The notes beneath the pieces were generated by a model that ran no database searches, was not told the DNA's origin, and saw only the letters and a list, made by a program, of their open reading frames with translations. A stretch of DNA of 64,000 nucleotides from Escherichia coli (GTDB taxonomy: Bacteria > Pseudomonadota > Gammaproteobacteria > Enterobacterales > Enterobacteriaceae), in NCBI RefSeq assembly GCF_024223415.1, contig NZ_CP100500.1, one strand, 5' to 3'. The position numbers and the translations under genes were made by a program. Numbering within the stretch: position 1 is the stretch's first letter; each line of letters opens with the position of its first letter. This document shows, one piece after another, positions 11,368-61,385 of this stretch.

Positions 11368-11429
11368 ATCGGCGGAACCAGGCTTTTGCTTGAATGTTCC
11401 GTCAAGGGATCACGGGTAGGAGCCACCTT

Positions 11430-12422
11430 ATGAGTCAGAATACGCTGAAAGTTCATGATTTAAATGAAGATGCGGAATTTGATGAGAACGGAGTTGAGGT
11501 TTTTGACGAAAAGGCCTTAGTAGAAGAGGAACCCAGTGATAACGATTTGGCCGAAGAGGAACTGTTATCGCAGGGAGCCACACAGCGTGTGTTGGACGCG
11601 ACTCAGCTTTACCTTGGTGAGATTGGTTATTCACCACTGTTAACGGCCGAAGAAGAAGTTTATTTTGCGCGTCGCGCACTGCGTGGAGATGTCGCCTCTC
11701 GCCGCCGGATGATCGAGAGTAACTTGCGTCTGGTGGTAAAAATTGCCCGCCGTTATGGCAATCGTGGTCTGGCGTTGCTGGACCTTATCGAAGAGGGCAA
11801 CCTGGGGCTGATCCGCGCGGTAGAGAAGTTTGACCCGGAACGTGGTTTCCGCTTCTCAACATACGCAACCTGGTGGATTCGCCAGACGATTGAACGGGCG
11901 ATTATGAACCAAACCCGTACTATTCGTTTGCCGATTCACATCGTAAAGGAGCTGAACGTTTACCTGCGAACCGCACGTGAGTTGTCCCATAAGCTGGACC
12001 ATGAACCAAGTGCGGAAGAGATCGCAGAGCAACTGGATAAGCCAGTTGATGACGTCAGCCGTATGCTTCGTCTTAACGAGCGCATTACCTCGGTAGACAC
12101 CCCGCTGGGTGGTGATTCCGAAAAAGCGTTGCTGGACATCCTGGCCGATGAAAAAGAGAACGGTCCGGAAGATACCACGCAAGATGACGATATGAAGCAG
12201 AGCATCGTCAAATGGCTGTTCGAGCTGAACGCCAAACAGCGTGAAGTACTGGCACGTCGATTCGGTTTGCTGGGGTACGAAGCGGCAACACTGGAAGATG
12301 TAGGTCGTGAAATTGGCCTCACCCGTGAACGTGTTCGCCAGATTCAGGTTGAAGGCCTGCGCCGTTTGCGCGAAATCCTGCAAACGCAGGGGCTGAATAT
12401 CGAAGCGCTGTTCCGCGAATAA
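11430..12422 (+). CDS. rpoS: RNA polymerase sigma factor RpoS (sigma-S/sigma-38)
   Basis: Known N-terminus [14 protein letters not shown] starts at ATG 11430 (330 aa); ORF-track frame extends to an upstream ATG at 11394. Codon 33 is GAG (Glu). Confidence 0.97.
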
Positions 12423-12437
12423 GTAAGCATCTGTCAG

Positions 12438-12470
12438 AAAGGCCAGTCTCAAGCGAGGCTGGCCTTTTTC
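12438..12470 (+). terminator. rpoS intrinsic terminator (GC hairpin + T-run)
   Basis: aaaGGCCAGTCTCaagcGAGGCTGGCCttttt directly after the rpoS stop. Confidence 0.75.
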
Positions 12471-12541
12471 TTTTGTTTGGGAAGCTTGTGTTTTTGTCGC
12501 CTGGATAAGACACGTCAGCGTCCTACCCGGCAATTTGCATC

Positions 12542-12949
12542 CTATGTGTTCATCATCTTGCGCACCAGCTGCACAAACAGCTCCTGCTCTTCTGCACTCA
12601 AACGCCCCAAAAATTCCTCATCCACGCTGTCACCAATCGGTATCGCCGCAGCAAGTATCTTTTCTCCTTCGGCAGTCAGCCAGACAAAGCGACGCCGCTT
12701 GTCAGCGGCATCATGTTCACGTCTGACTAAGCCACGATTCTCCATTCTTGCCAACATTTCTGCCAACGTTGCTTTGGTGCTGACTGCTGCTTCTATCAGT
12801 GCCACCTGTTCGATACCAGGCTTATCAGCAATGGCGCGCATCACCGCATACTGTGGTTTGGTCAGGTCAGGTAACTCGTGCTGCCAGCGAGCCGTGTGCT
12901 GCTGAAAAAGCTGTCGTAACTGATGGAACGCTTTATTTCGTAACGCCAT
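12542..12949 (-). CDS. MarR/SlyA-family transcriptional regulator
   Basis: ORF-track frame 12542-12982; Met at 12949 has a GGAG Shine-Dalgarno 7 nt upstream, giving about 135 aa. Winged-helix MarR-like sequence. Divergent from the decarboxylase operon. Confidence 0.8.
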   Translation of the reverse strand: MALRNKAFHQLRQLFQQHTARWQHELPDLTKPQYAVMRAIADKPGIEQVALIEAAVSTKATLAEMLARMENRGLVRREHDAADKRRRFVWLTAEGEKILAAAIPIGDSVDEEFLGRLSAEEQELFVQLVRKMMNT

Positions 12950-13064
12950 GTAAACTCCGGGCAAACTATCTGCCGCTATCATAGCGGTTTTTCAGTGACG
13001 AAGGGGATGTTGTTACTTTTCAGTGCTTGCCGCAATGAGAACAGAGGCGTATTTTAATAATAAT

Positions 13065-13078
13065 GTTCGTATACGAAC
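13065..13078. promoter_or_regulatory. Perfect 14-bp palindrome GTTCGTATACGAAC, candidate MarR-family operator
   Basis: Exact inverted repeat in the 113-bp divergent intergenic region, 18 bp upstream of the ecdB ATG. Confidence 0.5.
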
Positions 13079-13095
13079 AATTAAGAGAGTAAGCA

Positions 13096-13689
13096 ATGAA
13101 ACTGATCGTCGGGATGACAGGGGCTACCGGTGCGCCTCTTGGTGTGGCATTACTGCAAGCGCTGCGGGAGATGCCGAATGTCGAGACTCATCTGGTGATG
13201 TCGAAGTGGGCGAAAACCACCATTGAACTGGAAACGCCTTACAGCGCCCGCGATGTTGCTGCCCTCGCTGACTTCAGCCATAACCCGGCGGATCAGGCGG
13301 CGACCATCTCCTCAGGTTCCTTTCGTACCGACGGCATGATCGTTATTCCGTGCAGTATGAAAACGCTCGCCGGTATCCGCGCTGGTTACGCTGATGGCCT
13401 GGTAGGGCGCGCGGCGGACGTCGTGCTCAAAGAAGGCCGCAAACTGGTGCTGGTGCCGCGTGAAATGCCGCTTAGCACCATCCATCTCGAAAATATGCTC
13501 GCACTTTCACGCATGGGCGTGGCGATGGTGCCGCCGATGCCTGCCTTTTATAACCATCCCGAAACGGTAGATGACATTGTCCACCACGTGGTAGCCCGCG
13601 TGCTGGATCAATTTGGCCTTGAACATCCCTACGCCAGGCGCTGGCAAGGATTGCCGCAGGCCCGGAATTTTTCTCAGGAGAATGAATAA
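13096..13689 (+). CDS. ecdB: UbiX-like flavin prenyltransferase (Pad1 family), decarboxylase subunit B
   Basis: 197 aa; MKLIVGMTGATGA flavoprotein signature; TAATG overlap with the next gene. Confidence 0.85.
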   Translation: MKLIVGMTGATGAPLGVALLQALREMPNVETHLVMSKWAKTTIELETPYSARDVAALADFSHNPADQAATISSGSFRTDGMIVIPCSMKTLAGIRAGYADGLVGRAADVVLKEGRKLVLVPREMPLSTIHLENMLALSRMGVAMVPPMPAFYNHPETVDDIVHHVVARVLDQFGLEHPYARRWQGLPQARNFSQENE

Positions 13690-15116
13690 TGGCATTTGAT
13701 GATTTACGCAGCTTTTTACAGGCGCTTGATGACCACGGCCAGTTACTGAAAATCAGCGAAGAGGTGAACGCGGAACCGGATCTGGCTGCCGCTGCCAACG
13801 CCACCGGGCGTATCGGCGATGGTGCACCGGCGCTGTGGTTTGATAATATTCGCGGTTTTACCGATGCCCGCGTGGCGATGAATACCATCGGTTCCTGGCA
13901 GAACCACGCGATTTCCTTGGGCCTGCCGCCAAACACCCCGGTTAAAAAACAGATTGATGAGTTTATCCGCCGCTGGGATAACTTCCCGATCGCCCCGGAG
14001 CGCCGCGCCAATCCAGCCTGGGCGCAGAACACCGTCGATGGTGACGAGATTAATCTGTTCGATATCCTGCCGCTGTTTCGTTTAAACGACGGTGATGGCG
14101 GTTTCTATCTCGACAAAGCGTGCGTGGTTTCCCGCGATCCGCTCGACCCGGATAACTTCGGCAAGCAGAACGTCGGCATCTACCGCATGGAAGTGAAGGG
14201 CAAGCGTAAGCTCGGCCTGCAACCGGTGCCGATGCACGATATCGCCCTGCATCTGCATAAAGCAGAAGAGCGCGGTGAAGATCTACCGATTGCGATCACG
14301 CTCGGTAACGATCCGATCATCACGCTGATGGGCGCAACGCCACTGAAATACGATCAATCTGAGTACGAAATGGCAGGCGCGCTGCGTGAAAGCTCGTACC
14401 CGATCGCCACCGCCCCGCTGACCGGTTTTGATGTGCCGTGGGGTTCAGAAGTGATCCTCGAAGGGGTCATCGAAAGCCGTAAACGCGAAATCGAAGGGCC
14501 GTTCGGTGAGTTTACCGGACACTACTCCGGCGGGCGTAACATGACCGTGGTGCGCATCGATAAAGTCTCTTACCGCACCAGGCCGATTTTCGAATCGCTG
14601 TACCTCGGCATGCCGTGGACCGAAATCGACTACCTGATGGGGCCAGCCACCTGTGTGCCGCTGTATCAGCAACTGAAAGCCGAGTTCCCGGAAGTGCAGG
14701 CGGTAAACGCCATGTACACCCACGGCCTGCTGGCGATTATCTCCACCAAAAAACGCTACGGCGGCTTTGCCCGCGCGGTGGGCCTGCGTGCGATGACCAC
14801 GCCGCACGGTCTGGGCTACGTAAAGATGGTGATTATGGTCGATGAAGACGTTGACCCGTTCAACCTGCCGCAGGTGATGTGGGCGCTCTCCTCGAAAGTA
14901 AATCCGGCAGGGGATTTGGTGCAGTTGCCGAATATGTCCGTGCTGGAACTCGACCCTGGCTCAAGCCCGGCGGGGATCACCGACAAGCTGATTATCGACG
15001 CCACCACGCCTGTCGCCCCGGACAACTGTGGTCACTACAGCCAGCCGGTGGTGGATTTGCCGGAAACCAAAGCCTGGGCTGAAAAACTGACCGCTATGCT
15101 GGCTGCACGTAAATAA
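13689..15116 (+). CDS. ecdC: UbiD-family (prFMN-dependent) aromatic acid decarboxylase, subunit C
   Basis: 475 aa; UbiD-like; operonic with the UbiX-like gene. Confidence 0.85.
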   Translation: MAFDDLRSFLQALDDHGQLLKISEEVNAEPDLAAAANATGRIGDGAPALWFDNIRGFTDARVAMNTIGSWQNHAISLGLPPNTPVKKQIDEFIRRWDNFPIAPERRANPAWAQNTVDGDEINLFDILPLFRLNDGDGGFYLDKACVVSRDPLDPDNFGKQNVGIYRMEVKGKRKLGLQPVPMHDIALHLHKAEERGEDLPIAITLGNDPIITLMGATPLKYDQSEYEMAGALRESSYPIATAPLTGFDVPWGSEVILEGVIESRKREIEGPFGEFTGHYSGGRNMTVVRIDKVSYRTRPIFESLYLGMPWTEIDYLMGPATCVPLYQQLKAEFPEVQAVNAMYTHGLLAIISTKKRYGGFARAVGLRAMTTPHGLGYVKMVIMVDEDVDPFNLPQVMWALSSKVNPAGDLVQLPNMSVLELDPGSSPAGITDKLIIDATTPVAPDNCGHYSQPVVDLPETKAWAEKLTAMLAARK

Positions 15117-15126
15117 GGAGAACAAG

Positions 15127-15363
15127 ATGATTTGTCCACGTTGTGCCGATGAACAGATTGAAGTGATGGCGAAATCGCCGGTGAAAGATGTCTGGACGGT
15201 ATATCAGTGCCAGCATTGCCTTTATACCTGGCGCGATACCGAACCGCTGCGCCGTACCAGCCGCGAACATTACCCTGAAGCGTTCCGCATGACGCAGAAA
15301 GATATTGATGACGCGCCAATGGTGCCGAGCATCCCGCCGCTGCTGGCGGCAGATAAGCGCTAA
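15127..15363 (+). CDS. ecdD: Small decarboxylase subunit D (Cys-rich, zinc-ribbon-like)
   Basis: 78 aa with CPRC...CQHC motifs; 10 bp after ecdC stop. Confidence 0.75.
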   Translation: MICPRCADEQIEVMAKSPVKDVWTVYQCQHCLYTWRDTEPLRRTSREHYPEAFRMTQKDIDDAPMVPSIPPLLAADKR

Positions 15364-15403
15364 TAAAAAGTGCCGGGTAGTGGCTTTGCTTTACCCGGCC
15401 TCA

Positions 15404-16060
15404 TTACTTTATTTTATAAAATGACAGCCGCCCGCTTTTCGGCGATCCGGTATCAATATAAATCTGGTTAGCGAACGTCTGAATGTTATCAAACATCATA
15501 TGTCCAAATATAAAATAATCAGCGCCGTTTATTTGTTGTAACTCGCCATTAAGCGATTTCTGCACACGATCAACAGGCCAGAGTAATTCGCTCTCCGCTA
15601 TTTCTTTACCAAAGAGATATTCACTCCCCGGATAATCTGCATGTGCGATGACATATTTTATATTGTCGTTAGTGATTTCAATAATATGTGGAAGGTGATG
15701 GAATTTCAGCAACAGATCTGTAGCTTCTTTTTGCTCTGAATCATTTAAATCGAAAAACCAGTCACCACCGCTGGCAAGCCACATATTTCCATCGCCAGTT
15801 TCGAATGCATCAAGCGCCATCGCTTCGTGGTTGCCTTTAACGGAGATAAACCAGGGCTGGTTTAGCAGGCGCAGGACGTTAAGACTCTCCGGCCCACGAT
15901 CAATATTATCGCCGACAGAAATAAGTAAGTCGGTTTCGGGGAAAAAAGAGAGTTGATGTAAGCGGGATTGTAATAACTGATATTCACCATGAATATCACC
16001 AACGACCCATATATGGCGATAGTGATGGGCATTGATTTTTTGATAGCGTGTAGATGGCAT
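15404..16060 (-). CDS. pphB: Serine/threonine protein phosphatase 2
   Basis: 218 aa; metallophosphatase motifs GDIHG and GDNIDRG; next to mutS. Confidence 0.9.
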   Translation of the reverse strand: MPSTRYQKINAHHYRHIWVVGDIHGEYQLLQSRLHQLSFFPETDLLISVGDNIDRGPESLNVLRLLNQPWFISVKGNHEAMALDAFETGDGNMWLASGGDWFFDLNDSEQKEATDLLLKFHHLPHIIEITNDNIKYVIAHADYPGSEYLFGKEIAESELLWPVDRVQKSLNGELQQINGADYFIFGHMMFDNIQTFANQIYIDTGSPKSGRLSFYKIK

Positions 16061-25288: not shown

Positions 25289-25639
25289 TCACTCCTGGTC
25301 TATTTCTATCCGCCGAATCTGTAAACCGTCGTCTGCCACAATCTGTAGCATGTCACCATGACACTGTGGACAGCGGCGGACGCGCTGGGTCAGTAGCGTC
25401 ACATACTGTTGGCATGTTTCACACCAGCATTCGGCCTCTTGTTCTTCGAGGTGCAGTTTACAACCTTCCGCCACGCTGCCGCGGCAAACCAGATCAAAAC
25501 AAAAGGCAAGAGAGCTGGTTTCGACACAAGAAAATGCGCCAATTTTGAGCCAGACCCCAGTTACGCGTTTTGCGCCGTGTTTTGCGGCCTGCTGTTCGAT
25601 CAATTCCAGTGCCCGTTGGCAGAGGGTTATTTCGTGCAT
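25289..25639 (-). CDS. hypA: Hydrogenase nickel-insertion protein HypA
   Basis: Start at MHEITLCQ (116 aa); zinc-finger CxxC...CPQC. Confidence 0.94.
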   Translation of the reverse strand: MHEITLCQRALELIEQQAAKHGAKRVTGVWLKIGAFSCVETSSLAFCFDLVCRGSVAEGCKLHLEEQEAECWCETCQQYVTLLTQRVRRCPQCHGDMLQIVADDGLQIRRIEIDQE

Positions 25640-25850: not shown

Positions 25851-26312
25851 ATGACTATTTGGGAAATAAGCGAGAAAGCCGATTACATCGCACAGCGGCA
25901 TCGTCGCCTACAGGACCAGTGGCACAACTACTGCAATTCGCTGGTTCAGGGGATCACGTTATCGAAAGCGCGCCTGCATCACGCCATGAGCTGCGCGCCG
26001 GACAAAGAACTCTGTTTCGTCCTTTTTGAACATTTTCGTATTTACGTCACCCTGGCGGATGGCTTTAACAGCCACACCATCGAGTATTACGTCGAAACAA
26101 AAGAGGGCGAAGACAAACAGCGGATTGCGCAGGCGCAACTGAGCATTGACGGCATGATTGATGGCAAGGTCAACATCCGCGATCGCGAACAGGTTCTGGA
26201 ACACTATCTCGAAAAAATCGCTGGCGTTTACGACAGCTTATACACCGCCATTGAAAACAATGTGCCGGTGAATTTAAGCCAACTGGTAAAGGGACAAAGC
26301 CCGGCAGCATGA
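25851..26312 (+). CDS. hycA: Formate hydrogenlyase regulatory protein HycA
   Basis: 153 aa; matches HycA; first gene of hyc operon. Confidence 0.94.
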   Translation: MTIWEISEKADYIAQRHRRLQDQWHNYCNSLVQGITLSKARLHHAMSCAPDKELCFVLFEHFRIYVTLADGFNSHTIEYYVETKEGEDKQRIAQAQLSIDGMIDGKVNIRDREQVLEHYLEKIAGVYDSLYTAIENNVPVNLSQLVKGQSPAA

Positions 26313-38860: not shown

Positions 38861-41113
38861 ATGGCAAAAAACACATCTTGCGGTGTCCAACTGCGTATTC
38901 GTGGCAAAGTGCAGGGCGTCGGTTTTCGTCCGTTTGTCTGGCAGCTGGCACAGCAATTAAATCTTCACGGCGATGTCTGTAATGACGGCGATGGCGTAGA
39001 AGTCCGGCTGCTGGAAGACCCGGAAACGTTTCTTGTTCAATTGCATCAGCACTGCCCGCCGCTGGCGCGTATTGATAGCGTTGAGCGTGAACCGTTTATC
39101 TGGTCACAACTGCCCACTGAGTTCACTATCCGTCAGAGCGCGGGCGGCGCCATGAATACGCAAATTGTTCCCGATGCCGCCACTTGCCCTGCTTGCCTTG
39201 CCGAAATGAATACCCCAGGCGAACGGCGTTATCGTTATCCATTTATCAACTGTACCCACTGCGGCCCGCGCTTCACCATTATTCGCGCCATGCCTTACGA
39301 TCGCCCGTTTACCGTGATGGCGGCGTTTCCGCTGTGTCCAGCCTGTGATAAAGAGTACCGCGACCCGCTCGATCGTCGCTTCCACGCCCAGCCGGTGGCC
39401 TGCCCGGAGTGTGGCCCGCATCTTGAATGGGTAAGTCATGGTGAACATGCAGAACAAGAGGCGGCATTACAGGCGGCTATCGCACAGTTAAAAATGGGCA
39501 ACATTGTCGCCATCAAAGGGATTGGCGGATTTCATCTTGCCTGCGATGCACGTAACAGTAACGCGGTGGCGACACTTCGGGCGCGCAAACATCGCCCGGC
39601 GAAACCGCTGGCAGTCATGTTGCCAGTGGCTGACGGTTTACCAGACGCTGCGCGCCAGTTGCTTACCACGCCCGCTGCGCCGATTGTGCTGGTGGATAAA
39701 AAATACGTACCTGAGATTTGTGATGATATCGCCCCTGGCCTTAACGAAGTCGGGGTGATGTTGCCTGCGAACCCGCTCCAGCATTTGCTGTTACAGGAAC
39801 TGCAATGCCCGCTGGTGATGACCTCCGGCAACCTGAGCGGTAAACCACCGGCTATCAGCAACGAACAGGCGCTGGCGGATTTGCAGGGCATTGCCGACGG
39901 ATTCTTGATACATAACCGCGACATCGTGCAGCGGATGGATGATTCGGTGGTGCGCGAAAGCGGCGAAATGCTGCGCCGTTCGCGGGGGTATGTGCCGGAT
40001 GCGCTGGCTTTGCCTCCGGGCTTTAAAAATGTTCCGCCTGTGCTGTGTCTCGGCGCGGATCTGAAAAATACCTTCTGCCTGGTGCGCGGTGAACAAGCGG
40101 TGTTGAGCCAGCATCTGGGCGATTTAAGTGACGATGGCATCCAGATGCAGTGGCGCGAAGCGTTACGCCTGATGCGAAACATCTACGATTTCACCCCGCA
40201 ATACGTTGTGCATGACGCACATCCTGGCTATGTCTCCAGCCAGTGGGCGCGCGAAATGAATCTGCCGACGCAAACGGTGCTGCATCATCATGCCCATGCA
40301 GCGGCGTGTCTGGCAGAGCATCAGTGGCCGCTGGATGGCGGTGATGTCATTGCTTTGACGCTCGACGGTATCGGTATGGGGGAGAACGGCGCTTTGTGGG
40401 GCGGCGAGTGCCTGCGGGTGAACTATCGCGAATGTGAGCACCTGGGCGGCTTGCCTGCAGTGGTGCTTCCGGGTGGCGATTTGGCGGCGAAGCAGCCGTG
40501 GCGTAACCTGCTGGCGCAGTGCCTGCGCTTTGTGCCGGAGTGGCAGAATTACCCTGAAACGGCAAGTGTGCAACAGCAAAACTGGAGCGTGCTGGCGCGG
40601 GCCATTGAGCGTGGAATTAACGCGCCGCTGGCGTCATCGTGTGGGCGTTTGTTCGATGCTGTGGCGGCGGCACTGGGCTGTGCGCCAGCCACGTTAAGTT
40701 ATGAAGGTGAAGCGGCTTGTGCTCTGGAGGCGCTCGCAGATTCGTGCGACGGAGTGACGCATCCGGTGACGATGCCGCGGGTGGACAATCAACTGGATCT
40801 CGCCACTTTCTGGCAGCAGTGGCTGAACTGGCAGGCACCGGTTAATCAACGCGCGTGGGCGTTTCATGATGCGCTGGCGCAGGGTTTTGCCGCGTTGATG
40901 CGTGAGCAGGCCACGATGCGTGGTATCACTACGCTGGTATTTAGCGGCGGGGTTATTCATAACCGTTTGCTGCGTGCACGTCTGGCGCATTATCTCGCTG
41001 ATTTCACATTGCTCTTCCCGCAGAGTTTACCGGCGGGTGATGGCGGTTTGTCTCTGGGGCAGGGGGTTATTGCTGCGGCGCGTTGGTTAGCGGGTGAACT
41101 CCAGAACGGATAA
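38861..41113 (+). CDS. hypF: [NiFe]-hydrogenase maturation carbamoyltransferase HypF
   Basis: Start [25 protein letters not shown] (750 aa); acylphosphatase, Zn-finger and YrdC/Kae1-like regions. Confidence 0.95.
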
Positions 41114-41135
41114 AGCGTGTTGCATTTGGACACCC

Positions 41136-41220
<85 letters not shown>

Positions 41221-41240
41221 TTTTGGGCACAGTAGCCCGC

Positions 41241-42374
41241 CTACACCGGCAATGTTTTCAACAATCCAAATGCCTCTTTCATCCGATCCTCACTGACCAC
41301 AAAGGCGCGAAGTTGGTCTGCATCGTCAACACCGCGCGCCACCATTCCCTGGCGTTCGGTATTAATTTGCCAGCGTAAATCCTGACGCTGGGTTTCGCCT
41401 GCCAGATGCAGCGGTAATTCCGGCGTTTTGATTTTCACCAGCATCGCCGGTAGTTTCAGTGGCGTGTTATTGCCGAGAAGATTTTTTGCCAGCACCATCG
41501 CGCTAAGTTGAATCGGCTGCAGGAACGGCAGTACCTGACCGTTAATTTCCGCGCAATCGCCCAGCGCGTAAATATCGGCATTACTGGTTTGCAGATAACT
41601 ATCGACGCAAACGCCGCGATTAATCGTCAGCCCGGCGCGTTGTGCCAGGGCTGTTTCCGGGCGCAGTCCGGTGGCGGCAATTACCGCATCCACTTCGATA
41701 CTACGCTGGCGGTCCAGCGTTGCCAGAATGCCAGAATCCGTTTTTTCCAGCCCCTGCAACTGAGATTTCAACAGCAGATGAACGCCCATCTCCGTCAACC
41801 GATGCTGCAAGCGACTGCTTACTTCCGGTGGCATTAACGACGCCAGAATACTGGCAGCGTTGTCGATTAGCGTAACCATTTTGCCTGCACGACAAAAATC
41901 CATCGCCAGTTCGCTACCAATCAAACCACCGCCAACAATCAACACGCGTCGGGCATTCCGCAGTTGCGTTTCACAGGCGCGATACTCTTGCTGACTATTT
42001 AACGTCAGCATTAACTCACGCCCAGGCACTGGCGGGACAAAGGCGCTGGCACCGGTTGCCAGCACCAGCTTGTCGTATTGCCACTGATTATTCTGGCTTT
42101 TCACCACACGGGCTTCGGCATCGATATCCGTCACCCAGGTTTGCGGAAACAGGAGCAGATTAAACTGCTCGGCAAATTCACCCGCCGTCTGGCGGGTAAG
42201 GTCGTCGGCACGTTGCCCCTGACTGATAACATGGCTGAGGTCAGGTTTGTTGTACTCATCCATGCTGTCGGCGGCAATCAGGGTTAATGGAATACTGGCG
42301 TCCTGTTTGCGAATATTTTTCACCAGTTGGCGGGCGGCGAAGCCCGAACCAATGATCACAATGCCGTTGCTCAT
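41241..42374 (-). CDS. norW: NADH:flavorubredoxin reductase
   Basis: 377 aa; FAD/NAD Rossmann motifs; overlaps norV stop. Confidence 0.94.
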
Positions 42375-43810
42375 TTTGCCTCCGATGCCAGTTCGTCAAA
42401 GACGTCTTTGCCGAGGGAGCATTCCGGGCACAGGAAGTTATCCGGGACTTCACTCCACGGCGTTCCTGGCGCAACGTCCTGCATTGGCTCGCCTTTTGCC
42501 GGATCGTAAATCCACTGGCAGACGCTGCACTGCATCCGTGGGCCGAGGTCAGCCGTCGTGGTGGCAGAGGTTTCTTCTTTAACTACCGTATTCACCGTGC
42601 TCTGCGGCAGCGGCGCGAGCGCCCACTGACGGGCGATTTCGCGACCGTGTTCACGGCATAACTCCAGAGCGTCCTGGTCTGGTCGCCATTTCGCTTTCAG
42701 GCTAAGCGACATTTCGAAACCCGCATCCTGCAGGCGCGTGGAAAGACGATCCACCGCACCGCCGCTCCAGCCGTGAGAGCCGAAAGCACTGGCGCGTTTG
42801 TTACGGAAGCGTAATCCGGTCATCTCCTCCACCAGCCCGGCGATTTTCGGCATCATCACGTTATTCATCGTCGAAGTGCCGACCAGCACGCCTTTTGAGC
42901 GGAAGACATTGGTCAGGATTTCGTTTTTATCGCTTCGGGCGACGTTGAAAATTTTCACCGCCACGCGTGGGTCGGTTTCCGCAATCCCCTGGGCGATAGC
43001 GTCAGCCATCATGCGGGTGTTATTCGACATGGTGTCGTAGAAAATGGTGATTCTGTCTTCCTGATAATCAGCGGCCCACTTCAGGTACAGCTCGACAATT
43101 TGCGTCGGGTTATCGCGCCAGACCACGCCGTGGGAGGTCGCTATCATATCGACTGGTAAGTTAAAGCCCAGGATCTCGGTAATTTTCGGCGTTACCAGGC
43201 GGCTGAACGGCGTCAGGATATTGGCGTAGTAACGCTGGCACTGCTCGAAAAGCTCCGTCTGATCCACTTCATCGTTGAACAGATGCTCGTCGCAGTAGTG
43301 CTGACCGAAAGCATCGTTACTGAACAGCACCGCGTCGCCTGTCAGGTAAGTCATCATGCTGTCCGGCCAGTGCAGCATTGGTGTTTCGACAAAAATGAGC
43401 TGTTTGCCGTTGCCGATATCCAGCGTGTCGCCAGTTTTCACCACATTAAAATTCCACTCCGGATGATGGTGATGACCATTTATCGAGTCGATAGCGTTGG
43501 CTGTACAGTAGATCGGCGTATCGGGAATTTGTGCCATCAGTTCGGTTAGCGCCCCGGCGTGGTCCTCTTCTGCATGGTTAATCACGATGTAATCGATATC
43601 CGCCAGATCGATTTCATTACGCAGGTTCTGCACAAATTCGCGGCTGAATTTATGGTCGACGGTGTCGATCAGCACGTTTTTTTCTTCGCGGATGAGGTAG
43701 CTGTTGTAGCTGCTGCCGCGCAGCGTTTTATATTCCGTGCCGTGAAAATCTCGTACTTCCCAGTCACGTTGACCCACCCAATGAATGTTATTTTTCACCA
43801 CAATAGACAT
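42371..43810 (-). CDS. norV: Anaerobic nitric oxide reductase flavorubredoxin
   Basis: 479 aa full length, including C-terminal rubredoxin CxxC...CPEC; no internal deletion. Confidence 0.95.
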
Positions 43811-43857
43811 AGCAACCTCAATTTATTCAGCGTGTTCTAAAAAGATGTCTTGCTAAT

Positions 43858-43873
43858 TGCAGATTGCGTGCCA
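43858..43873 (-). promoter_or_regulatory. sigma54 promoter of norVW
   Basis: Minus-strand CTGGCACgcaatCTGCA, with GG and GC 12 bp apart, about 48 bp upstream of the norV ATG. Confidence 0.75.
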
Positions 43874-43928
43874 GTTTTTTATCTAATTGTTTTTACTCTA
43901 TAAATAAAATTATGCTCATTAGTGAGTA

Positions 43929-43984
43929 GTCAAAATGACTATCAATCAAATGGTCGATATGACAATATCTATAGTCAAATTGAC
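43929..43984. promoter_or_regulatory. Three NorR enhancer sites (GT-N7-AC)
   Basis: gtcaaaatgac (43929-39), gtcgatatgac (43953-63), gtcaaattgac (43974-84) in the norR-norV intergenic region. Confidence 0.8.
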
Positions 43985-43996
43985 AGTGAGGCAAAG

Positions 43997-45511
43997 ATGA
44001 GTTTTTCCGTTGATGTGCTGGCGAATATCGCCATCGAATTGCAGCGTGGGATTGGTCATCAGGATCGTTTTCAGCGTCTGATCACCACGCTGCGTCAGGT
44101 GCTGGAGTGCGATGCGTCTGCGTTGCTACGTTACGACTCGCGGCAGTTTATTCCGCTTGCCATCGACGGGCTGGCGAAGGATGTACTCGGTAGACGCTTT
44201 GCGCTGGAAGGTCATCCACGGCTGGAAGCGATTGCCCGCGCGGGTGATGTGGTGCGCTTTCCCGCAGACAGCGAATTGCCCGATCCCTATGACGGTTTGA
44301 TTCCAGGGCAGGAGAGTCTGAAGGTTCACGCCTGCGTTGGTCTGCCGCTGTTTGCCGGGCAAAACCTGATCGGCGCATTGACGCTCGACGGGATGCAGCC
44401 CGATCAGTTCGATGTTTTCAGCGACGAAGAGTTACGCCTGATTGCCGCGCTGGCGGCGGGAGCGTTAAGCAATGCGTTGCTGATTGAGCAACTGGAAAGC
44501 CAGAATATGCTGCCAGGCGATGCCGCTCCATTTGAAGCGGTGAAACAGACGCAGATGATCGGTCTGTCGCCAGGCATGACGCAACTGAAAAAAGAGATTG
44601 AGATTGTGGCGGCGTCCGATCTCAACGTCCTGATCAGCGGTGAGACGGGAACCGGTAAGGAGCTGGTGGCGAAAGCGATTCATGAAGCCTCGCCACGGGC
44701 GGTGAATCCGCTGGTCTATCTCAACTGTGCCGCACTGCCGGAAAGTGTGGCGGAAAGTGAGTTGTTCGGGCATGTGAAAGGAGCATTTACTGGCGCAATC
44801 AGTAACCGCAGTGGGAAGTTTGAAATGGCGGATAACGGCACGCTGTTTCTCGATGAGATCGGCGAGTTGTCGTTGGCATTGCAGGCCAAGCTGCTGAGGG
44901 TGTTGCAGTATGGCGATATTCAGCGCGTTGGCGATGACCGTAGTTTGCGGGTCGATGTGCGCGTGCTGGCGGCGACTAACCGCGATTTACGCGAAGAGGT
45001 GCTGGCAGGGCGATTTCGCGCTGACTTGTTCCACCGCCTGAGCGTGTTTCCACTTTCGGTGCCGCCGCTGCGTGAGCGGGGCGATGATGTCATTCTGCTG
45101 GCGGGGTATTTCTGCGAGCAGTGTCGTTTGCGGCAGGGGCTCTCCCGCGTGGTATTAAGTGCCGGAGCGCGAAATTTACTGCAACACTACAGTTTTCCGG
45201 GAAACGTGCGCGAACTGGAACATGCTATTCATCGGGCGGTAGTGCTGGCGAGAGCCACCCGCAACGGCGATGAAGTGATTCTTGAGGCGCAACATTTTGC
45301 TTTTCCTGAGGTGACGTTGCCGCCGCCAGAAGTGGCGGCGGTGCCCGTTGTTAAGCAAAACCTGCGTGAAGCGACAGAAGCGTTCCAGCGTGAAACTATT
45401 CGTCAGGCACTGGCACAAAATCATCACAACTGGGCTGCCTGCGCGCGGATGCTGGAAACCGACGTCGCCAACCTGCATCGGCTGGCGAAACGTCTGGGAT
45501 TGAAGGATTAA
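43997..45511 (+). CDS. norR: Nitric-oxide-responsive sigma54-dependent activator NorR
   Basis: Start [15 protein letters not shown] (504 aa); ORF-track frame extends upstream through the NorR sites. GAF domain, AAA+ [14 protein letters not shown]. Confidence 0.95.
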
Positions 45512-57815: not shown

Positions 57816-57908
57816 GGTGAGGTGGCCGAGAGGCTGAAGGCGCTCCCCTGCTAAGGGAGTATGCGGTCAAAAGCTGCATCCGGGGTTCGAATCCCCGCCT
57901 CACCGCCA
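57816..57908 (+). tRNA. serV: tRNA-Ser (anticodon GCT)
   Basis: 93 nt GGTGAGGTGGCCGAG...CACCGCCA with long variable arm and anticodon loop cuGCUaa. Confidence 0.95.
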
Positions 57909-57911
57909 TTT

Positions 57912-57988
57912 GCATCCGTAGCTCAGCTGGATAGAGTACTCGGCTACGAACCGAGCGGTCGGAGGTTCGAATCCTCCCGGATGCACCA
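57912..57988 (+). tRNA. argV: tRNA-Arg (anticodon ACG), copy 1
   Basis: 77 nt GCATCCGTAGCTCAGCTGGATAGAGTACTCGGCTACGAACCGAGCGGTCGGAGGTTCGAATCCTCCCGGATGCACCA; 3 bp after serV. Confidence 0.95.
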
Positions 57989-58123
57989 TATTCTCCGTAA
58001 CCTTCAGCGATGAAGGTATGGAAGAGGTGGCGGTACTAACCGCAGGCACCAGGGAGGATAACGTTGCTTTAGCAACGGCCCGAAGGGCGAGCCGCAAGGC
58101 GAGTAATCCTCCCGGATGCACCA
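57989..58123 (+). repeat. tRNA-array spacer module X (copy A), ending in an 18-nt tRNA-Arg 3'-end fragment (58106-58123)
   Basis: Has hairpins ACCTTC-agcgat-GAAGGT and CGTTGC-ttta-GCAACG, then ATCCTCCCGGATGCACCA identical to the tRNA-Arg 3' end. Confidence 0.7.
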
Positions 58124-58187
58124 TCTCTTACTTGATACAGCTTTAGTAGCGGTATCAAAAAATCTGCAGTAAAGTAAGTTTCCCGAT

Positions 58188-58264
58188 GCATCCGTAGCTC
58201 AGCTGGATAGAGTACTCGGCTACGAACCGAGCGGTCGGAGGTTCGAATCCTCCCGGATGCACCA
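58188..58264 (+). tRNA. argY: tRNA-Arg (anticodon ACG), copy 2
   Basis: Identical 77-nt sequence; 199-bp spacer after copy 1. Confidence 0.95.
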
Positions 58265-58326
58265 TCTCTTACTTGATATGGCTTTAGTAGCGATATCAAT
58301 ATCAGCAGTAAAATAAATTTCCCAAT

Positions 58327-58403
58327 GCATCCGTAGCTCAGCTGGATAGAGTACTCGGCTACGAACCGAGCGGTCGGAGGTTCGAATCCTCCCGGATGCA
58401 CCA
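58327..58403 (+). tRNA. argZ: tRNA-Arg (anticodon ACG), copy 3
   Basis: Identical 77-nt sequence; 62-bp spacer after copy 2. Symbol assigned by order only; could correspond to argQ. Confidence 0.9.
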
Positions 58404-61312: not shown

Positions 61313-61385
61313 AAAAAGGCCACTCGTGAGTGGCCAAAATTTCATCTCTGAATTCAGGGATGATGATAACAAATGCGCGTCTTTC
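61313..61385 (-). ncRNA. micA: MicA (SraD) small regulatory RNA
   Basis: Minus-strand GAAAGACGCGCATTTGTTATCATCATCCCTGAATTCAGAGATGAAATTTTGGCCACTCACGAGTGGCCTTTTT matches MicA from memory, including its terminator hairpin; conserved gshA-luxS location, divergent from luxS. Confidence 0.92.

Follow-up and report, generated by a model that had tools for sequence, protein, structure and literature searches.

A full-length norV and a K-12-like regulatory region point to a standard norR–norVW nitric oxide detoxification locus in an Escherichia coli genome

In E. coli K-12, NorR binds three GT-(N7)-AC inverted repeats, and a footprint showed protected G residues between -137 and -84 from the transcript start (PMC2831303). 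All three sites are essential, as a GG-(N7)-CC mutation of any single one abolishes norV expression, and IHF binds in the stretch that separates the NorR sites from the start site, a placement given as a general location only (PMC2831303). The initial annotation of the sequence studied here had noted that some pathogenic lineages are reported to carry an internal norV deletion, and this is borne out by published work, in which the O157:H7 strains EDL933 (clade 3) and Sakai (clade 1) were reported to share an identical 204-bp deletion (PMC8779985, PMC7558590). The deletion is limited to O157:H7 clades 1–3, clades 6–9 being intact (PMC8779985), and norV was intact in all of the non-O157 EHEC tested (PMC7558590).

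Our study compared these systems with a locus in a 64-kb stretch of E. coli DNA (64,000 nucleotides, the window). The sequence of interest comprises the norV coding sequence together with the entire norR–norV intergenic region, and the human commensal strain SCU-316 (NZ_CP054371.1) was among the genomes compared. We judge this to be the standard, intact norR–norVW nitric-oxide (NO) detoxification locus of Escherichia coli, with a probability of about 0.96 given the sequence evidence set out below. It is a textbook locus, present here in the form that is usual for the species. The genes and the segment that bear on this reading are as follows.

41241 to 42374, minus strand: norW, NADH:flavorubredoxin reductase, an open reading frame of 377 aa lying 3' of norV
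42371 to 43810, minus strand: norV, anaerobic NO reductase flavorubredoxin, a full-length open reading frame of 479 aa with an ATG start
42758 to 42961, minus strand: the 204-bp segment (codons 284–351, flavodoxin domain), present, as placed by MAFFT alignment with the norV of O157:H7 RIMD 0509939
43997 to 45511, plus strand: norR, NO-sensing sigma54 enhancer-binding protein, 504 aa, divergent from norV

The interval 42371–43996, which had been singled out at the outset, is exact: the norV stop codon ends at 42371, and 43996 directly precedes the norR ATG at 43997. The norV TGA and the norW ATG overlap as ATGA, with a GGAGG just 5' of the norW ATG, and the norR–norV intergenic region measures 186 bp (43811–43996). 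A megablast search with 1,627 bp covering norV and the intergenic region hit all but one of 5,426 complete E. coli genomes, and the matches in these 5,425 were all annotated as norR/norV/norW. A consensus scan of positions 41000–44100 for sigma70 promoters and terminators returned nothing above shuffle expectation, and so nothing on the norR promoter or a norW terminator. The convergent gap between hypF and norW (41114–41240) is filled by REP/BIME-like palindromic repeats (for example GCCGGATGCGGCGTAAACGCCTTATCCGGCCTACA), and no simple terminator was detected in it.

Across its whole length the window aligns collinearly with SCU-316 (99.84 % identity). By the annotation of that strain, it runs from cas1e/cas2e–CRISPR through iap–cysDNC, rpoS, mutS, fhlA, hyp, hyc, asc, hydN and hypF, and after hypF through norWVR, gutQ, srl, recA, alaS, csrA, gshA and luxS–emrBA. 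Over norV and the intergenic region the two sequences are 100 % identical, whereas elsewhere they differ in CRISPR spacer content and in having three (window) or four (SCU-316) copies of tRNA-Arg(ACG). The type I-E CRISPR array (approximately 580–1280) adjoins cas2e/cas1e, and its spacer content differs from that of SCU-316; besides the collinear alignment, only a gapped secondary one of 82 % identity was found, and at 643–793 a repeat-plus-spacer unit is perfectly duplicated. The tRNA difference is one of copy number in a tandem array, with tRNA-Ser(GCT) followed by the three tRNA-Arg(ACG) genes at 57816–58403. A variable region between mutS and rpoS, whose position (approximately 11400–16000) was estimated through the collinearity with SCU-316, would carry, by the SCU-316 annotation, hydroxyarylic acid decarboxylase subunits B, C and D alongside a MarR-family regulator. 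This insert is not known to occur in K-12 and is a known polymorphic island. The gene for the sRNA MicA (61314–61385, minus strand; Rfam RF00078, 83.9 bits) lies, as is usual, between luxS and gshA.

The protein encoded by norV has every sequence hallmark of flavorubredoxin, a class B flavodiiron protein, that we looked for. It aligns with the NorV equivalog NCBIfam NF003954 over positions 1–479 of 479 with 1047 bits (cut-off 711), and Pfam recovers the three-domain architecture in order: a metallo-beta-lactamase-like domain (Lactamase_B/ODP, 33–228), a flavodoxin domain (Flavodoxin_1, 256–389) and a C-terminal rubredoxin domain (Rubredoxin, 425–471). The description of NorV as a 479-aa protein that retains its rubredoxin domain was thus confirmed. 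The solved E. coli flavorubredoxin (PDB 4d02) aligns with residues 1–479 and the rubredoxin-domain entry 2MS3 with residues 423–479. All seven diiron ligands (H79, E81, D83, H84, H147, D166 and H227) and all four rubredoxin cysteines (C428, C431, C461 and C464) are present; we take this ligand list to be established knowledge from the E. coli FlRd structures.

The partner proteins are equally complete. NorW scores 682 bits with NCBIfam NF003437 (cut-off 392) and carries the rubredoxin-binding C-terminal domain in Pfam, while NorR scores 823 bits with NF003451 (cut-off 476) and has GAF, Sigma54_activat and AAA_lid domains, the Walker A motif GETGTGKE and the GAFTGA motif. Residues R75, D96, D99, C113 and D131, reportedly the iron ligands of the NorR GAF domain, are all present.

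Alignment of the window norV with those of K-12 and O157:H7 revealed neither an in-frame deletion nor a frameshift. The annotated norV of O157:H7 RIMD 0509939 is 1,236 bp long, and its MAFFT alignment with the window contains a single 204-bp gap that removes residues 284–351, giving the EDL933/Sakai-type allele a product of 411 aa. The window lacks this in-frame loss and retains codons 284–351, which make up much of the flavodoxin (FMN) domain missing from the O157 allele. A 6-bp direct repeat, GCGGTG, flanks the segment, and the window keeps both copies. The view that this strain does not carry an EDL933-type allele is borne out directly by the sequence. The O157:H7 deletion itself is consistent with slippage or illegitimate recombination between these short repeats. 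Outside the deletion, the O157 allele and the window norV differ at nine nucleotides and at no amino acid; the NorR sites and the promoter of O157:H7 are the same as those of the window, and O157:H7 strains are approximately 99.2 % identical to it by megablast over the flanking sequence and norV plus the intergenic region.

With the 204-bp segment alone as the query, 5,334 of the 5,426 complete genomes were found to contain it. Deletion carriers were counted as the difference between the 5,425 genomes with norV and the 5,334 with the segment, which leaves about 91 norV-bearing genomes without it (1.7 %) and approximately 98 % with it. A direct count by a 70-bp query over the O157 deletion junction was rejected, since the halves of the query were joined in intact genomes and it was non-discriminating. 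The norV of the window is the common ancestral state. Because an intact gene is normal in E. coli (5,334/5,425), it says little about lineage, and because clades 6–9 are intact (PMC8779985) it is also compatible with an O157:H7 background.

Upstream of norV, the regulatory region contains the following elements, in order from norR towards norV.

43974 to 43984, no strand assigned: NorR enhancer site 3, GTCAATTTGAC, GT-N7-AC, at -137 to -127 relative to the probable start of transcription
43953 to 43963, no strand assigned: NorR enhancer site 2, GTCATATCGAC, GT-N7-AC core consensus, invariant in eight strains
43929 to 43939, no strand assigned: NorR enhancer site 1, GTCATTTTGAC, GT-N7-AC, at -92 to -82
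43874 to 43928, no strand assigned: AT-rich enhancer-to-promoter spacer, nearly identical to that of K-12, where IHF binds this region
43858 to 43873, minus strand: sigma54 promoter TGGCACGCAATCTGCA, with GG at -25/-24 and GC at -13/-12
43847, minus strand: probable norV transcription start, intergenic position 150, giving a 36-nt 5' untranslated leader

The claim of three GT-N7-AC NorR sites stood: the 186-bp intergenic region contains exactly three matches, and each is base-for-base identical to the experimentally defined K-12 site. The 21-bp site-1 oligonucleotide of PMC2831303 (GATAGTCATTTTGACTACTCA) is found verbatim. From the published site geometry we infer that norV transcription starts at 43847, because this is the sole position that places the outermost protected Gs at -137 and -84 (PMC2831303) as well as GG and GC at -24/-12. 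Counted from this base, site 3 has its first G at -137 and site 1 its last G at -84, an exact reproduction of the published geometry; the three repeats span -137 to -82, consistent with PMC2831303, and TGGCACGCAATCTGCA shows the GG-N10-GC arrangement at the -24/-12 spacing. The sigma54 element (TGGCAC-N5-CTGCA) occurs once in the intergenic region and is identical to that of K-12. Its description as canonical was nearly, but not literally, true: the TGGCAC element is present as in K-12, but the -12 part reads CTGCA in place of the textbook TTGCA, again as in K-12.

Elsewhere in the window, TGGCAC-N6-TGCA is matched once more, by TGGCACAACTACTGCA at 25920–25935 (plus strand), within the 5' end of hycA (open reading frame 25851–26312). 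This candidate sigma54 match adjoins the FhlA/sigma54-controlled hyc–hyp divergent region.

Compared with K-12, the locus has the same gene order, the same gene lengths (479, 377 and 504 aa) and an intergenic region of the same size (186 bp). It also shares with K-12 all metal ligands and ATPase motifs, the ATGA overlap of norV and norW, the Shine–Dalgarno sequence, the -24/-12 element and the three NorR sites. The differences amount to two NorV, nine NorW and four NorR substitutions and three bases in the spacer, and they leave every defined functional element unaffected. By megablast over norV and the intergenic region, K-12 derivatives share 98.6 % identity with the window. The two NorV substitutions are K383E and E472D, with no gaps, and the O157:H7 allele has the residues of the window at both positions (E383 and D472). 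Against O157:H7, NorW differs at three residues and NorR at one, and all three proteins, including NorV at 100 %, are identical to their SCU-316 counterparts. The NorW and NorR substitutions are therefore natural alleles, since all are found in SCU-316 and most in O157.

An alignment of eight diverse E. coli strains showed the three NorR sites and the -24/-12 element to be invariant, whereas eight other intergenic positions vary and the enhancer-to-promoter spacer is polymorphic. The three spacer differences from K-12 lie at 43922 (-75, T to C), 43916 (-69, G to A) and 43885 (-38, C to T). The alleles at -69 and -38 are common to other aligned strains (T at -38 in three of the seven others), whereas the C at -75 is unique to the window among the eight; it lies beside NorR site 1, a single base past the end of the 21-bp oligonucleotide. 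Only 41 of the 5,426 complete genomes, SCU-316 and FORC_042 included, contain the exact 51-mer at 43877–43927, which covers all three positions. All three differences are most likely neutral.

The window also contains a fourth perfect GTCA-N3-TGAC palindrome, GTCACGTTGAC (plus strand), at 43763–43773, within norV codons 13–16 at approximately +75 to +85 relative to the norV start. This motif occurs seven times in the window against 0.73 expected, while other spacings give 0–3 matches. Further copies are seen at 25352, 29093, 57366 and 63525, in hypA, hycD, csrA and emrB, respectively, by the SCU-316 annotation. The excess and the norV-internal palindrome are probably due to chance or to a codon effect. 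It seems very unlikely that the -75 allele or this palindrome modulates NorR regulation, either by altering the induction threshold or by acting as a downstream NorR site. Were it so, the NO response of this lineage would differ quantitatively from that of K-12.

A full-length norV could also sit in an impaired module, if the natural substitutions or the rare -75 allele weakened IHF- or NorR-dependent activation. The substitutions in NorV (K383E and E472D), NorW (nine) and NorR (four) relative to K-12 give this idea some footing, as does the rarity of the promoter-spacer haplotype (41/5,426 genomes). However, the substitutions leave every known ligand and motif untouched, E383 and D472 also occur in the O157 NorV, NorR is only one residue away from the O157:H7 protein, and a commensal strain, SCU-316, carries all three proteins unchanged. 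In the DNA, no change affects the enhancer cores, the site-1 oligonucleotide (21 bp) or the -24/-12 element, and the T at -38 is shared with three of the seven other aligned strains. An impaired module is, on this evidence, very unlikely.

That the regulatory motifs are chance matches of no regulatory meaning in an AT-rich intergenic region can be dismissed as next to impossible. The loose GT-N7-AC pattern is indeed frequent, with 210 occurrences across the window, a density that predicts approximately 0.6 per 186 bp. However, the three sites found are all extended GTCA-N3-YGAC palindromes and remain invariant in eight strains that differ at nearby spacer bases, chance alone would give the sigma54 pattern only 0.25 times across the whole 64 kb, and published mutagenesis (GT/AC to GG/CC), which abolishes norV expression, covered the identical sequences (PMC2831303).

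The standard, intact locus is thus the reading we retain, and no sequence feature argues against a functional one. By the mechanism established in K-12, NorR dimers would bind the three GT-N7-AC enhancer sites and assemble into a hexamer. NO would then nitrosylate the mononuclear iron of the NorR GAF domain and relieve repression of the AAA+ ATPase, whose activity, with IHF-assisted DNA looping, would remodel sigma54-RNA polymerase at -24/-12 so that norVW is transcribed. Expression of norVW needs rpoN and IHF, both of which are encoded outside the window. Electrons would pass from NADH to NorW, on to the rubredoxin domain of NorV, to FMN and to the diiron centre, where NO would be reduced to N2O. 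The initial annotation proposed a functional NO-detoxification module, and we regard this as well founded on sequence grounds: the equivalog cut-offs are passed, the residues are present, and the enhancers and promoter match those of K-12. The norR–norVW locus of this strain is accordingly predicted, from its sequence, to be expressed and active.

In summary, the intact state of norV, shared by approximately 98 % of complete E. coli genomes, is unsurprising and does not set this strain apart, and it has little import beyond annotation. Judged from its genes, the strain has most likely retained anaerobic NO detoxification by way of NorVW, a route that in O157:H7 has been linked to macrophage survival, gut persistence and the modulation of Shiga toxin production (PMC7558590, PMC8779985).
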